From positions 24,290-88,289 of the forward strand of contig DJVQ01000022.1 in the NCBI GenBank assembly GCA_002441265.1: 64,000 nucleotides of DNA. The letters run 5' to 3'. This DNA comes from Syntrophaceae bacterium UBA6252. Lineage in GTDB: Bacteria; Desulfobacterota; Syntrophia; Syntrophales; UBA6807. Below the pieces are notes generated by a model. The model worked only from the letters and a program-made list of their open reading frames with translations, made no database searches and was not told the DNA's origin. Both the position numbers and the translations under genes were made by a program. Positions 10,281 through 15,286 of this stretch are shown in pieces (within the stretch, counting starts at the first letter, position 1; every line of letters begins with the position of its first letter).

Positions 10281-11777
10281 CTACCGCCCCGCGCCGGCCC
10301 CGATCTGCCGGGCCAGTTCACGGCTTTTCCTGAAATCGAAGTTCCGGAAGGCCTCCAGGCTGGCTTCCATGGTTTCCCTGTCCTTCCCGGCGCCGGCGGG
10401 AGGGCGGTTCCAGAGTCCCAGAAGAGCCCGCGTCGCCGTCAGGGCGTCCGCGCTTTTCTCGAGGGTCGTCACCAGGACGCCCTGGTCCTCCCCGCTCAGC
10501 CAGAGCGGGATGACGGCAAGACGGTTCTCCCGGTCCTCGAAAATGTCCCTTCCCTCCCGGTCGGACCGGAACGTGGCGTGGGAAAAACCCGGAGACCGGG
10601 GGTCGGCGTCCATGATCACCGCCGTGCCCGTGCCTTCCAGGGCTTCCGGATCCACCCTGACGACGAGAAGCCCCGAATCGGGCTGAATCCGGTCGTATCC
10701 GATCCGCCGGCGGTTTTCCACGAGATAGTACTTCCCGCCGGGCAGGGGGATTTTCACGACCAGGGTCTCCCCTCCCCTGTCCAGGGGCGCCAGGAAGACA
10801 CCCCGGGTCTCGCCGGGGTTCACCAGGACCGCCTGGTCCGGCGAGATCCATCCCAGCCGGATCCTCGTAAAGGAGGAAAGGCCCGGCGGCGGTGAATTGA
10901 TGTCGATGTAATGGGAGGACATGACATCCCAGGCACCCATGTACGTCGTGCACTCCTCCCACCGGTGGTTTCTCGAAGCGTCAGCCTGACGCTCGAAATT
11001 GTACAGTCAGGGGACGAGACGCCCGTCGGCGTGCACGCCTCCGAGGGCATGGAGAAAGTCATGGGCGAACATTCCCAGGGGGGCGTTTTCCGTTCCCACG
11101 AAGACCCCGCCTGAAAACTCCCGTCCCCCCTTCGAGCGCAGGGTGACGAACCGGGGATTTCCCCTCACTCCCGTGAGCATCCCCGGGTTGGCGCAGTAGC
11201 ACATCATGCCGTAGCCCTTTCCCGGAACGGTGGCGGCCCCCGGGACAATGAGCATGTTCTGGTACCGCGTGAAATCCACCCTGTCCTCCATGGCGGTCAT
11301 CGCGTCTTCTATGAGCTTCCTGACCCGGGTCCTGTCCACCTTGAAGTTGTCCGGGCTGATCCGGTACGCGGCCAGGGGTTCGGGAAGGGAGACCCACCCC
11401 ACGAAGTCGGACGTCACCCGGGCAAGGCCGTACGACTGGGCCTTGACATAGTCGCTCAATTCCTCCGTCACCCTCCGGCGGATCCTGTCCAGGGAAACCC
11501 TGGGCGCGACGTCGGGGAAACGGACCGCCGCCACGAGAAGACGCTGCTCCCCCGTTCCCCGGGTCGACTGGGGCCCCAGCAAATCCGGCGGGGCAGGGGT
11601 TTCCGTATTTCGTTTGAAGACGTTCTCTCCCTGAAAGACGTCCCCGCCCCGGGAACCTGCCGGCTGCGGGCCCTGGCAGGCCCAGACCAGGCAAAGAACG
11701 ACCCCAAGGGAAAGACCCCGCCATGACCATGCAATCTTTCGCAACATGACGGCCCTCCTTTTCTGAAAGGTTTTCAT
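10281..11777 (-). CDS. metzincin/M6-like metallopeptidase-like lipoprotein, open only if the TGA at 11007..11009 is read through (candidate selenoprotein, or else a pseudogene)
   Basis: Track ORFs 11007..11777 and 10281..10940 are in the same frame and are separated by a single TGA. Hand translation across the gap is continuous: ...FAHDFLHALGGVHADGRLVP-TGA-LYNFERQADASRNHRWEECTTYMGAWDVMSSHY... The N-terminus has a lipoprotein-type signal (LCLVWAC). The motif HDFLHALGGVH fits HxxxHxxGxxH. A SECIS-like hairpin follows the TGA. Confidence 0.5.
10969..10998 (-). promoter_or_regulatory. SECIS-like hairpin downstream of the in-frame UGA
   Basis: The mRNA reads UGA-CUGUACAAU-UUCGA-GCGUCA-GGC-UGACGC-U-UCGA-GAAA. 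The upper stem is 6 bp, the lower stem is 4 bp with one bulged U, and the apical loop is GGC. The GG begins about 21 nt after the UGA. Confidence 0.45.
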
Positions 11778-12015
11778 GCCGCCGGACCGGAAGGGTCTCC
11801 GGTCCGCCCATGCTTCAGCATACTACGAAGAGAGGGAAACGATCCATGGCTTTTTCCAATAGAACCACCTATAATCACTGAATATGAGAAATCCCGGCGG
11901 AGGGTTTCATTTGTGAAAGGCGGGATCGTGGGAGTTTCGATACACGACATTCCCGTAATTCCCTCAACGATCAGGAGACAACTAAGTGCGGCCATGGAAA
12001 AAAGAGGGGGAGCTT

Positions 12016-12930
12016 ATGAAGCGGGGGAACAAGGCAGCCGTCCTCTTTCCGGTGATCCTTTTGCCGGTGTTCCTGGGTTTGTGGATGCCGGAGCCGCTGC
12101 ACGGCGGCGGAAAGGCGGAAACGGAACACTTTGTCGTGAACGACCTCGACGGCCGGTTGACCGGAGAAGCGCTCGAGCGGTTCGCCGCCGACGCCGAGGC
12201 GGAATTTTCGAAAGTGGTCGATTTCTGGTCGCTGCCCTGCAACACGGAGGAAAACGGAAAAATCCTCCTGGAACTGAAACGGGCCCAGGGAGGGAAATCC
12301 TTCACCGTCTTCCAGATCGAGACGGGGGGGGAGGAAACGCGCAGGGTCCTCCGGGTCCAGGGAATCGAGAGCCCGCAGGAACTCGCCCACAAGATGACCC
12401 ACGCCCTTTTTCCCACGGGCGACAAGCTCATCCGGAACATGATGGGCATCCCCACGGAAACGCGCTTCGGAAACCCCGGGTCCTTCCCCATGTGCGGCTG
12501 CGACCTCGACGCCTGGGTCCCGGTCCTGATAAAAACGGGCGATTACATTCCCCTTTCGGAACTCCGGCCGGAGCACGAGGAATGGGGAATGACCTTCAAG
12601 GACAAAACCCCGTCCGTTTCGGACAGGAAAAAGCAGCACGCCTCCTACATCGAAGCGGGGTCGTTCGGTTCCTTCCTGATCCGGCGGTTCGGGATCGAAA
12701 AGGTCAAAGCCTTTTATCAGGCATCCCTCCGGCATCCCAGGCCCTGGAAGAAAATTTTCGGCCTCGACCTCGCCGGGCTGGAAGCGGAGTGGCTCAAAAC
12801 CGTAAGTGATTTCGCCAGGGAGAACGCCGCCCAGGCGGCATTTCTCGAAACGTTGTGGAAGAAGAACCCGGCCAGGGCCTGCTATGAGGCGCAGGACCTG
12901 ACGCGGAAGGGAGACAAGCCCTGGCGGTAG
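12016..12930 (+). CDS. hypothetical secreted protein with a degenerate peptidase-MA-like motif (HKMTH)
   Basis: An AGAGGGGGA RBS precedes the ATG at 12016. The N-terminus is signal-like (MKRGNKAAVLFPVILLPVFLGLW). The motif ELAHKMTHALFP resembles HExxH with Glu replaced by Lys. Confidence 0.5.
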   Translation: MKRGNKAAVLFPVILLPVFLGLWMPEPLHGGGKAETEHFVVNDLDGRLTGEALERFAADAEAEFSKVVDFWSLPCNTEENGKILLELKRAQGGKSFTVFQIETGGEETRRVLRVQGIESPQELAHKMTHALFPTGDKLIRNMMGIPTETRFGNPGSFPMCGCDLDAWVPVLIKTGDYIPLSELRPEHEEWGMTFKDKTPSVSDRKKQHASYIEAGSFGSFLIRRFGIEKVKAFYQASLRHPRPWKKIFGLDLAGLEAEWLKTVSDFARENAAQAAFLETLWKKNPARACYEAQDLTRKGDKPWR

Positions 12931-13093: not shown

Positions 13094-13121
13094 TTGATCT
13101 ATTCATCAGCATGGTTATAAT
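13094..13121 (+). promoter_or_regulatory. sigma-70-like promoter upstream of the selenopeptide ORF
   Basis: The sequence is TTGATC, a 16-nt spacer, then TATAAT. It lies about 90 nt upstream of the ATG at 13212. Confidence 0.4.
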
Positions 13122-13211
13122 ATGTCATTTGTATTCTATATTTGAAGGTTCTTTCTTTCCCGGGAGGGAGAACCCGGACGTTCAACCCAGTGGACGCAAA
13201 GGAGGCAGGCA

Positions 13212-13433
13212 ATGGAGTCATCGGATCTGAAGAAATTCCTTGCAGGATTGTGCATCGCCAGCCTGCTGGCAGGGACGAGCCTCGGCCTGGCCGGCTGCCA
13301 GAAGAAAGCCCAGACGAGTTGAACCGGCAAAACGGGTACTGGAAGTACCCAGGGAACCGGCGCTCCCGGAGCCCCCGACACGGGGAAGAGCAGTTGAACG
13401 GGAGAAAAGAAAGGTACCGGCGGTACCAATTAA
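13212..13433 (+). CDS. sbtA: SbtA-like RiPP precursor: 73-codon lipoprotein-signal peptide with two in-frame UGA (candidate Sec) codons
   Basis: This ORF is not in the track because it is broken by TGA codons. An AGGAGG RBS sits 6 nt before the ATG at 13212. Hand translation gives MESSDLKKFLAGLCIASLLAGTSLGLAGCQKKAQTS-U-TGKTGTGSTQGTGAPGAPDTGKSS-U-TGEKKGTGGTN, ending in TAA. The TGAs are at 13320..13322 and 13395..13397, and a hairpin follows each. It lies immediately upstream of a radical SAM/SPASM gene. Confidence 0.6.
13334..13350 (+). promoter_or_regulatory. SECIS-like hairpin 1
   Basis: GGGUAC-UGGAA-GUACCC forms a 6-bp perfect stem. The loop begins 17 nt after UGA-1 (13320..13322). Confidence 0.45.
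13413..13427 (+). promoter_or_regulatory. SECIS-like hairpin 2
   Basis: GGUACC-GGC-GGUACC forms a 6-bp perfect stem, or 5 bp with a CGGCG loop. The loop begins 21 nt after UGA-2 (13395..13397). Confidence 0.45.
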
Positions 13434-13675
13434 GTTTTTTCGGCAGAAGCCGGGCGGCGGAAGACGCCCCCCCGGGAACGGATGCGGTTCCGTTTCCCGA
13501 TGGAAGTCTTTCCCGGCCGGACACTCGAAGGATTCAATGAAAGGGATGACGCATCGTTTTGTCTCAGAATGGATGAAATTTTGAGCGCCTGGGAAGAAAC
13601 GGCGATGTCATCCCTTTTCACAGAGGGTCATTCGGGAAGTCTTCTCGAACCCGGACATGCGGTGAGAGGTTCGGA

Positions 13676-15286
13676 ATGCCGCCTTCCCCGCTGGAGGATC
13701 TGGAAAAAATCTGTCCCGTCTGCCGCTCCTGCCTGGCCGGAGCGGGACGGCACGATATCGTGGCGGGATATCCGGGCGGAGGGTCGAATCGATCCTTTGA
13801 CGAGTACCTGAAAGACAATGAAAGCGAACTCGGGGAACTCGCCTTTCTCCCCGAACTCGCGCTGCTGGAACGGATCACGGCGGAGCTGAAGAACGGGGAC
13901 GTTCGGATCCCCTCGCCGGCCCGGCGCTTCGAAACCAATCCATCCATCCGTCTGGAAACGTTTTCCTGGCAAGGGCTTGCCGCGCTCCTCGAGGATGGCC
14001 GTCCCTCCCGGCCGCGCCCCGTGAAAAAACGGGAGACCGTTCTCGTCTGGCTCCATCCCGTATCCCGGTCGGTCATGGTTCAGGCCGGATCGGACGCCGA
14101 CTGGCTGGCCTTGAAGATCGCCGCCGAAGGCATCGACAAGGAACGCCTGGCCGAGAGGGAGGGCGTCCCCCTGGCGGTCATCGAGGAAGCGATGTCCCGG
14201 GCCGTGGAAAAGGGGCTGGTCATCGCGCCCCGCTCCCTGATCCGGAGGAATCCCGAAAGGACCCCTCCGGGGGTCCGGGTGGACGAGGAATTTCTAGAAT
14301 CCCCCTTCTTCACCCTCCAGCTGCACATCACCCAGGACTGCGATCTCCGGTGCAAGCACTGCTACGACCGCAGCCGGAGGTCTTCCCTCGGGCTGATGAA
14401 AGGCACCGCGCTGCTGGACGAGCTCAGGGAATTCTGCAGGGACCGTCACGTCCGGGGCCAGGTTACCTTTTCCGGTGGAAACCCCCTCCTTCACCCCGGC
14501 TTCTTCGATCTGTACCGGGCGGCGGTCGAACGGGGTTTCGTCACCGCCGTCCTCGGGAATCCCGCTTCGAGGGAAAACCTGGAGCGAATCCTCCGGATCC
14601 GGAAACCGGCCTTTTACCAGGTCAGCCTCGAGGGGCTGAGGGAACACAACGATGCGATCCGGGGGAAAGGCAGCTTCGACAAGGTCCTCCGGTTCCTTCC
14701 CCTCCTGAGGGAATACGGGATCCCGTCCCTGGTGATGCTCACCCTGACAGGAGACAACATGGACCAGGTCATCCCGCTGGGAGACCGACTCGCGGGCCTG
14801 ACGGACGGGTTCACATTCAACCGCCTCGCCCAGGTGGGAGAGGGGGCGAACCTCCGCCTACCCGCCCGGGACGATTTTCAATCGTTCCTTGCATCCTACC
14901 TGAAAGCGTCGGAACGGAACCCCGTTCTGACCCTGAAGGACAATCTCTTCAACATCCTCCTGCGGCGGGAGGGGAAAAAGCCCTTCGGGGGCTGCGCCGG
15001 ATACGGATGCAGCGCCGCCTTCAATTTCCTCGCCGTCCTTCCCGACGGGGAGGTCCACGCCTGCCGGAAATTTCCTTCCCTCGTCGGAAACATCCACGAT
15101 CAGCGTCTCGCGGATATCTATGATTCCGAACCCGCCGAAAGGTATCGCCGGGGAACGGCGGCGTGCCGCGCCTGCCCGATCCGGCCCGTCTGCGGAAGCT
15201 GCCTTGCCGTGATGTACGGACGGGGGATGGATATTTTCAACTCCCGGGACCCCCACTGCTTCATGGAGGAGGGCTTTCCGGGGTAA
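13676..15286 (+). CDS. sbtM: radical SAM/SPASM-domain peptide maturase (SbtM-like)
   Basis: The CxxxCxxC motif sits in ITQDCDLRCKHCY. The C-terminal SPASM pattern is GGCAGYGC...GEVHAC followed by CRACPIRPVCGSC...HC. A roughly 200-aa N-terminal extension contains CPVCRSC. A GAGAGG RBS lies upstream. Confidence 0.8.
   Translation: MPPSPLEDLEKICPVCRSCLAGAGRHDIVAGYPGGGSNRSFDEYLKDNESELGELAFLPELALLERITAELKNGDVRIPSPARRFETNPSIRLETFSWQGLAALLEDGRPSRPRPVKKRETVLVWLHPVSRSVMVQAGSDADWLALKIAAEGIDKERLAEREGVPLAVIEEAMSRAVEKGLVIAPRSLIRRNPERTPPGVRVDEEFLESPFFTLQLHITQDCDLRCKHCYDRSRRSSLGLMKGTALLDELREFCRDRHVRGQVTFSGGNPLLHPGFFDLYRAAVERGFVTAVLGNPASRENLERILRIRKPAFYQVSLEGLREHNDAIRGKGSFDKVLRFLPLLREYGIPSLVMLTLTGDNMDQVIPLGDRLAGLTDGFTFNRLAQVGEGANLRLPARDDFQSFLASYLKASERNPVLTLKDNLFNILLRREGKKPFGGCAGYGCSAAFNFLAVLPDGEVHACRKFPSLVGNIHDQRLADIYDSEPAERYRRGTAACRACPIRPVCGSCLAVMYGRGMDIFNSRDPHCFMEEGFPG

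Follow-up and report, generated by a model that had tools for sequence, protein, structure and literature searches.

The sbtA-sbtM locus

The window, a 64,000-nucleotide stretch of the Syntrophaceae bacterium UBA6252 genome (contig DJVQ01000022.1), encodes a short precursor peptide, SbtA, with two in-frame TGA codons read as selenocysteine (Sec). It is followed on the same strand by the gene for the maturase SbtM, which starts 243 nt downstream of sbtA. The following features were identified, all on the forward (+) strand.

13094..13121, +, promoter-like sequence (TTGATC-16-TATAAT) some 90 nt ahead of sbtA; a consensus match only (10 of 12 consensus positions)
13200..13205, +, Shine-Dalgarno sequence AGGAGG, read from the sequence, 6 nt ahead of the sbtA ATG
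13212..13433, +, sbtA, a precursor gene of 73 codons plus a TAA stop; two in-frame TGA codons are translated as Sec
13212..13295, +, predicted lipoprotein signal peptide, SbtA residues 1-28, from patterns, hydropathy and column conservation
13287..13298, +, lipobox L26-A27-G28-C29, with a predicted LspA cut between G28 and C29; C29 is the predicted site of the diacylglyceryl and N-acyl groups
13296..13430, +, predicted mature core of 45 residues (C29-N73), rich in Gly, Thr and Lys and hydrophilic
13320..13322, +, TGA codon for Sec37 (T-S-U-T-G), from the translation, with a hairpin downstream
13334..13350, +, SECIS-like hairpin of 7 bp with a GGA loop, 14 nt 3' of the first TGA; -16.1 kcal/mol over a 46-nt stretch, z -1.8
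13395..13397, +, TGA codon for Sec62 (S-S-U-T-G), from the translation, with a hairpin downstream
13413..13427, +, hairpin of 6 bp with a GGC loop, 18 nt 3' of the second TGA; z -1.1, followed by a T-run and hence also terminator-like
13676..15286, +, sbtM, radical SAM/SPASM thio(seleno)oxazole maturase; TIGR04082 686.8 bits (cut-off 350), without a signal peptide
13676..14239, +, N-terminal domain of SbtM (residues 1-188), with a helical sub-domain followed by an RRE of three strands and three helices; the fold resembles HvfC/DUF2063 (mean pLDDT of the model 89; Foldseek)

SbtA scores 45.4 bits on the NCBIfam model TIGR04081, for which the cut-off is 30.5. Only residues 1-26 are matched, and the model itself is 27 positions long; thus, the SbtA family is defined by the very N-terminal segment that is at issue here. 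In whole-genome scans of the 3.3-Mb assembly (70 contigs), SbtA was the sole match to this model above the cut-off, and the runner-up reached 9.6 bits. The Pfam matches in SbtM are to Radical_SAM and SPASM. The genome also encodes SelB (selB, 354 bits in a profile search).

The SbtA/SbtM system has already been described (Haft and Basu 2011; Lewis et al. 2021, as summarised in PMC9204691, PMC11002830), and its natural product and biological role are stated to be unknown (PMC9204691). The genes in the window resemble the described system in that both score above curated cut-offs and form a two-gene cassette, the UGA codons are accompanied by hairpins, and the enzyme is of the radical SAM/SPASM type with an N-terminal extension. 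They differ in the residue ahead of Sec, which is Ser at both sites (T-S-U-T-G and S-S-U-T-G) and not the Gly of the described Gly-Sec motif (GGUG/SGUG), although that motif is typical of the family rather than strictly defining.

A protein homologue search with the 73-aa SbtA against 5.8 billion predicted proteins returned zero candidates. Gene callers stop at UGA codons, so SbtA-like precursors are absent from such a search and are overlooked in annotation. A Pfam search of the SbtA peptide gave no match, the short lipid-attachment models included.

A predicted lipoprotein-type signal in SbtA

The original prediction placed a lipoprotein signal peptide with an LAGC lipobox in residues 1-29, and this reading holds up. 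Residues 1-8 are polar and include K7 and K8. Residues 9-28 are hydrophobic and uncharged (an uncharged run of 20-22 residues), and the Kyte-Doolittle mean over residues 9-26 is 1.92. SbtA matches PROSITE PS51257 together with both of its side rules (a K or R among residues 1-7; Cys no earlier than 15 and no later than 35), and residues 9-28 supply the stretch of at least six uncharged residues that this pattern places ahead of the lipobox. SbtA also fits the G+LPP pattern for lipoproteins and, as a lipobox in the strict sense, [LVI][ASTVI][GAS]C. One coordinate needs correction: residues 1-29 occupy 13212-13298, and the end point first given, 13301, closes Q30. The predicted mature part is as first proposed, with 45 residues from C29 on (GRAVY -1.1) and Sec at 37 and 62.

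A rough genome scan, limited to frames of at least 120 aa, found a Shine-Dalgarno sequence combined with a lipoprotein-type signal in 46 of 11,604 frames. LAGC is the most frequent lipobox tetrapeptide among these (7 of 46). The median position of the lipobox Cys in this genome is 21.5, so that Cys29 of SbtA comes later and its signal is on the long side. The acidic residues E2 and D5 in the n-region count against a lipoprotein signal, as do the late Cys and the lack of a match to the Pfam lipid-attachment models. By every test run, nonetheless, the SbtA N-terminal sequence reads as a lipoprotein-type Sec signal peptide, and the prediction is supported.

Genes for lipoprotein processing and transport (lgt, lspA, lnt, lolCE and lolA) were all identified above curated cut-offs, and pal and bamD are also encoded. 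Thus, the genome is that of a diderm with the full triacyl-lipoprotein route.

The hydrophobic segment could instead be an uncleaved signal-anchor, that is, an N-in/C-out transmembrane helix that stays unprocessed, in which case the peptide would be tethered by its own helix and not by a lipid. An uncharged stretch of this length can span a membrane, and the segment is unusually conserved and has glycines at 12 and 21 that recall helix-packing motifs. Against this, the segment ends in a canonical lipobox or AxA site in nearly all SbtA peptides, which points to cleavage, and Lgt, LspA and Lnt are encoded. We consider an uncleaved anchor quite improbable. Residues 1-28 are likely to form a Sec-type lipoprotein signal of the kind cleaved by signal peptidase II, and this signal probably doubles as a leader recognized by SbtM.

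Variation of the predicted signal across the SbtA family

SbtM was found in 30 genomes of an even, phylum-wide sample of 401, and in 28 of the 301 genomes taken from the window's order. A locus search seeded with SbtM alone had returned 2 loci only, and the genome search was used in its place. In the 56 SbtM-positive genomes, SbtA homologues were identified by scanning the flanks of sbtM with UGA read through, using an iterated leader profile.

Every SbtA N-terminus detected in these genomes has the n/h/c architecture of a signal peptide. The 49 distinct N-termini follow a common plan, with K/R at position 7, a hydrophobic stretch over residues 9-24 (mean GRAVY 1.96) and strongly conserved columns within it: L10 (48 of 49), G12 (49 of 49), L18 (49 of 49), G21 (46 of 49) and L24 (43 of 49). 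[GAS]-Cys occurs at 27-29 in 30 of the 49 peptides, at 29 in 24 of those 30. The 26 Sec-bearing peptides with a lipobox use 12 different tetrapeptides, e.g., VSGC, MSGC, VVGC, VTGC, ITGC, VISC, LTGC and LAGC. The residue at -3 is V, M, L, I or T, that at -2 is S, T, V, A or G, and that at -1 is mostly Gly but can be Ser or Ala.

Another 12 of the 49 peptides lack Cys in this place; at 28-31 they have a small-x-small site resembling that of signal peptidase I (e.g., ANA, AQA, ALA, VHA, TLA and ASA). The remaining seven are a mixed group: in three a longer c-region precedes a Cys at 36, two are of the Cys type and have ALA or SAA sites, one is a second paralogue that lacks Sec, and one is a broken gene. 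By genome, the 30 SbtM-positive members of the phylum sample include 10-11 with the lipobox, nine without Cys, two with both kinds of site and three with the late Cys; an intact SbtA was not found in five of these 30. In the window's order, 22 of 28 SbtM-positive genomes have the lipobox type and 4 of 28 the Cys-less type.

In an IQ-TREE phylogeny of SbtM with 46 rows, the lipobox and Cys-less states are clustered. Seven changes are needed to explain them, with at least four forced by well-supported branches, and one switch separates sister sub-clades within a single genus. The SbtM clade of the window (seven rows, support 95/92) is entirely of the lipobox type.

Conservation of the lipobox Cys, named at the outset as a check on the lipoprotein reading, is therefore uneven: the residue is invariant in the window's clade and present in most of the order, but about a third of the SbtM-positive genomes of the phylum sample have an AxA-type site instead. 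The lipobox is missing from about a third of the family, and on these sequences lipidation is not essential to the system. That it is replaced by an AxA-type site at the same position supports an export signal instead of refuting it, since a lipobox or an AxA site in one place is expected of a Sec signal peptide and there is no reason for it in a cytoplasmic recognition helix. Switching between signal peptidases I and II within one family has been reported for chryseobasin-like peptides made by MNIO enzymes and for bufferins (PMC13056109, PMC12452194).

Cys29 and the selenocysteine sites

Cys29 might itself be a substrate of SbtM, with G28-C29 as the first Gly-Cys motif of the core, converted to a thiooxazole and not lipidated. 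SbtM does modify a Gly-Cys(Sec) motif in vitro (PMC9204691), and Gly precedes the Cys in most lipobox-type SbtA. The spacing and context of the Cys speak for a different role. The first Sec lies at 35-38 in Cys-bearing and Cys-less SbtA alike; thus, Cys29 is an extra element with no equivalent among the core sites, and the idea that it corresponds to the first core Sec was rejected. The lipobox Cys is followed by A, E, Q, V or K and then by K or T. The pair [GST]-G, found after 48 of 55 Sec residues, never occurs there. The residues at -3 and -2 obey lipobox rules, that at -1 may be Ser or Ala, and the Cys is placed directly where the hydrophobic stretch ends. Modification of Cys29 by SbtM in place of lipidation is, on this evidence, very improbable, and we retain Cys29 as the predicted lipidation site.

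The residue ahead of Sec follows the type of SbtA, being Ser or Ala at 50 of 55 Sec sites in the lipobox type and Gly at 30 of 30 in the Cys-less type. We also considered whether Sec could itself serve as the lipobox residue in Cys-less SbtA (G-S-G-U). The residue at -3 is then Gly, Gln or Ala, against lipobox rules, and we set this idea aside as a remote curiosity.

SbtM and probable recognition of the leader

In an AlphaFold2 model of SbtM (mean pLDDT 90.6), the N-terminus is a folded helical domain and not a signal peptide. A Pfam search by sequence gave no match for this N-terminal domain. By structure, Foldseek matched it to TglHI (8hci_A, chain A of the holoenzyme; E 1.3e-5) and to H. 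influenzae HI_1599 (E 8.9e-7), with PqqD matches over residues 73-182. ESM Atlas clusters that contain DUF2063 or are named 'HvfC family' maturation proteins were matched with TM 0.65-0.74, and in one of these clusters DUF2063 is fused to an MNIO bufferin maturase. MNIO enzymes have their precursors bound by HvfC-type partners, which contain an RRE (PMC11252979).

The SbtA signal region is conserved to a degree that is unusual for a signal peptide. Across six genomes that range from the same genus to the same phylum, it is 63% identical on average and SbtM 55%. Pal and BamD served as the only two controls in these genomes; for Pal, identity is 35% in the signal peptide and 53% in the mature part, and for BamD it is 29% and 50%. 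Given this conservation and the HvfC/DUF2063-type domain in SbtM, we infer that a conserved face of the leader is bound by that domain. Thus, the SbtA leader probably doubles as the recognition sequence for SbtM. Caution is called for here, as the signal peptide was dispensable for modification of BufA1 and HvfA (PMC11626156, PMC11252979).

A purely cytoplasmic recognition helix would show such conservation too. The segment could then be a RiPP leader only, bound by SbtM and removed by a non-dedicated protease, its likeness to a lipoprotein signal incidental and the product kept inside the cell or exported by another route. The near-invariance of L10, G12, L18 and G21, the restriction of TIGR04081 to the leader and the fusion of an RRE-containing domain to SbtM are all in keeping with this. 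A recognition helix does not, however, explain why a lipobox or AxA c-region is found at the same position in every clade, nor why K/R at 7-8 is followed by 16-20 uncharged residues. Precursors of bufferins and oxazolins, which have partner domains of the same family, nevertheless have real Sec signal peptides that are cleaved (PMC11626156, PMC11252979).

The neighbourhood of sbtAM argues in the same direction, as no conserved protease or exporter was found beside it: SbtM is the only family shared within 1.5 kb (56 loci) and within 8 kb (21 loci). The next most frequent neighbours are generic signalling proteins (GGDEF, PAS and histidine-kinase proteins). A conserved module of sbtAM with the exported peptidase-like neighbours in the window, an HKMTH protein and an M6-like selenoprotein, was rejected because these adjoin sbtAM in 0 of 56 other loci. 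We regard a leader with a cytoplasmic role only as improbable. A stand-alone two-gene cassette fits reliance on the housekeeping Sec pathway, signal peptidase and Lgt/Lnt. Binding of the leader by the maturase, envisaged earlier together with removal by a dedicated protease as the contrary outcome, is thus likely given the conserved leader and the HvfC/DUF2063-type domain; the second element, the protease, has no conserved counterpart near sbtAM. Recognition by SbtM and export would then be two functions of one segment.

Proposed pathway

We infer the following course for SbtA, covering its export, lipidation and cleavage, the order of these events, and the final location and function of the product. 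The 73-residue peptide would be translated with two SelB/SECIS-directed selenocysteines, involving two slow Sec-decoding steps, and released into the cytoplasm. A peptide this short barely exposes its signal by the end of translation; its targeting must then be post-translational, which leaves time for modification. SbtM, in the cytoplasm, would hold SbtA via its fused HvfC/DUF2063-type domain and convert Ser-Sec37 and Ser-Sec62 into selenooxazoles. The expectation that the radical SAM enzyme is cytoplasmic and acts before export is supported by the gene: SbtM is an Fe-S enzyme without a signal peptide and so acts in the cytoplasm, and modification must precede export.

The modified SbtA would then be exported by SecYEG. 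By analogy with the argument made for bufferins, the small heterocycles should pass through this channel (PMC11626156). Lgt would place diacylglycerol on Cys29, LspA would cleave between G28 and C29, and Lnt would N-acylate the new N-terminus. The pathway would yield an envelope-anchored peptide of 45 residues that bears three acyl chains and two selenooxazoles. From its sequence, we conclude that enzyme-modified SbtA probably crosses the inner membrane and becomes lipid-anchored. Given the Gln at +2 and the LolCE and LolA encoded in the genome, transfer to the outer membrane may be possible; the +2 sorting rule is not universal. The role that we favour for the product, by analogy with bufferins and oxazolins, is soft-metal or redox handling in the envelope.

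Relationship to known systems

Bufferins carry thiooxazoles and are exported by the Sec route (PMC11626156); lipoprotein signals occur in about 16% of the Buf2 bufferins (PMC12452194). The BufABC/HvfABC products, bufferins and oxazolins, are periplasmic copper-binding peptides with thiooxazole or oxazolone-thioamide groups (PMC11626156, PMC11252979, PMC12452194). SbtA/SbtM resembles these systems in having a Sec signal peptide where a classical leader would be expected, and in its precursor-binding module of the HvfC/DUF2063 fold. Also shared are Cys-derived five-membered heterocycles with an exocyclic chalcogen, installed before export, and lipoprotein signals in a minority of the bufferin and oxazolin precursors have their counterpart in the SbtA lipobox. 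The systems differ in several respects. In SbtM the module is fused to a radical SAM enzyme able to work without oxygen, whereas theirs is the partner of an O2-dependent MNIO. The SbtA core is of low complexity, whereas theirs is a folded small protein. Further, the signal that BufA1 and HvfA can dispense with during modification is the sole conserved part of SbtA. If our reading is true, the oxygen-independent and oxygen-dependent routes to thio(seleno)oxazoles would share a precursor-binding fold and an export logic.

The order of events proposed for SbtA has a parallel in the anaerobic sulfatase-maturing enzyme, a radical SAM/SPASM enzyme that oxidizes a Cys or Ser side chain of a signal-peptide-bearing sulfatase in the cytoplasm before export. 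That system is unlike SbtM in that the substrate is a large enzyme, the product is formylglycine and not an oxazole, and there is no lipid anchor. The likeness of SbtM to the sulfatase-maturing enzyme has been noted (PMC9204691).

The closest precedent for the lipid anchor is provided by the DAG-RiPPs of MNIO families (e.g., DybA and NedA), which are triacylated via the lipoprotein pathway and include signal peptidase I and II variants in one family (PMC13056109). As in our reading of SbtA/SbtM, the precursor adjoins a cytoplasmic modifying enzyme and has a signal peptidase II signal, the invariant lipobox Cys is not a modification site, and relatives have signal peptidase I signals. Processing is by the housekeeping Lgt, LspA and Lnt and not by a dedicated protease or exporter, as is predicted for SbtA. 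SbtM is, in contrast, a radical SAM/SPASM enzyme and not an MNIO, and its likeness to the MNIO partner proteins is confined to the N-terminal domain. The SbtA core also bears selenocysteine, and lipidation has been demonstrated for DAG-RiPPs whereas that of SbtA is predicted from sequence. Mining for DAG-RiPPs was confined to MNIO neighbourhoods (PMC13056109), and MNIO, an enzyme family unrelated to SbtM, is so far the only one for which a lipoprotein route for RiPPs is shown experimentally.

The proposal that a lipid-anchored, selenium-containing RiPP would be an unusual class of natural product would here apply to a radical-SAM, selenium-bearing variant. A lipid anchor on a RiPP is in itself no longer unprecedented, DAG-RiPPs having been shown for MNIO families in 2025-26 (PMC13056109). 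In the accessible literature, which leaves out the primary papers (Haft and Basu 2011; Lewis et al. 2021), we found no description of the SbtA N-terminus as a signal peptide or lipoprotein signal and no experimental report of export, cleavage or lipidation of any SbtA.

In summary, SbtA of the window is a radical-SAM, selenium-bearing candidate DAG-RiPP, with family-wide support for Sec export that is wholly computational. We suggest, tentatively, that the SbtA peptides of its clade may be the first lipoprotein-pathway RiPPs that are made by a radical SAM enzyme and bear selenium. The 28-residue segment would serve both as the leader for SbtM and as the Sec/LspA signal, and the triacylated 45-residue product would display two selenooxazoles in the envelope of an anaerobe, where they might bind soft metals or shuttle electrons or chalcogens, an O2-independent counterpart of the bufferins and oxazolins made by MNIO enzymes. 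If this is true, the product of SbtA should be sought in membrane or outer-membrane-vesicle fractions, and not in the culture supernatant or cytosol, and it should be purified by lipoprotein extraction. The lipoprotein-pathway route for RiPPs would then no longer be confined to MNIO enzymes but would take in radical SAM chemistry and selenium as well.

Precursor variation

The residue preceding selenocysteine (Sec) co-varies with the type of SbtA signal, both in the window (13320-13397) and across the SbtM-positive loci L009-L069. Among precursors with a lipobox-type signal, Ser or Ala precedes Sec in 50 of 55 cases, including both Sec residues of the window peptide. Among Cys-less precursors, which carry an AxA-type signal peptidase I site instead, the preceding residue is Gly in every case (30/30). 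The characterised SbtM substrate has Gly-Sec, whereas Ser precedes both Sec residues of the window SbtA. Because the SbtA sequences compared are related to one another, this co-variation may be an effect of lineage rather than of function.

One feature follows the second in-frame TGA of sbtA:

13413-13440, hairpin (GGTACC-GGC-GGTACC) with the stop codon and then a run of T immediately after it, and with a terminator-like score

This hairpin may have a double use, in Sec insertion and in partial termination between sbtA and sbtM.

Two genes resembling sbtA occur together in some loci (L031, L033 and L021). The pair in L031 and L033 consists of a Cys-less copy that carries Sec and, beside it, a Sec-free copy in which the signal ends in MGC or VGC and is followed by a Cys-containing core. 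Selenium-free relatives of SbtA were also identified in L018, L032 and L034 and as the second copy of L021, and their cores contain repeated G-S-C-G-G-G or G-C-G-x-S-C-G motifs. The selenium-free relatives show that the same leader (the N-terminal signal region) is common to Cys-type and Sec-type SbtA cores.

Broken or split genes were also encountered. At L066/L068 (G488:C22:249718-251264), SbtM is in two pieces, with one in-frame TGA within the match; the gene could be a pseudogene or frameshifted, or the maturase could itself contain a Sec residue. In L025 (genome G229), the SbtA leader is whole and the frame diverges past residue 23, without any Sec. This precursor looks like a frameshifted sbtA beside an SbtM gene that is intact.

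Gene order and mobility of the sbtAM cassette

The position of sbtA relative to sbtM varies, and it is not upstream in every locus. It lies downstream and convergent in three genomes of one genus (L045, L048 and L049); in L045, the 1.5 kb preceding sbtM yielded no sbtA. In L017, L056, L032 and L034, sbtA follows sbtM on the same strand. The exported M6-like selenoprotein and HKMTH peptidase-like protein encoded upstream of sbtA in the window (10281-12930) adjoin sbtAM in no other locus examined. Thus, synteny does not support a conserved "selenium module" combining these proteins with sbtAM.

L044 derives from a genome (G405) of the same genus as the window genome, with which its control lipoproteins Pal and BamD share 77% and 69% identity, respectively. 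Its SbtM is only 49% identical to that of the window (13676-15286) and falls in a different SbtM clade. Given close Pal and BamD but a distant SbtM, the sbtAM cassette appears to move horizontally.
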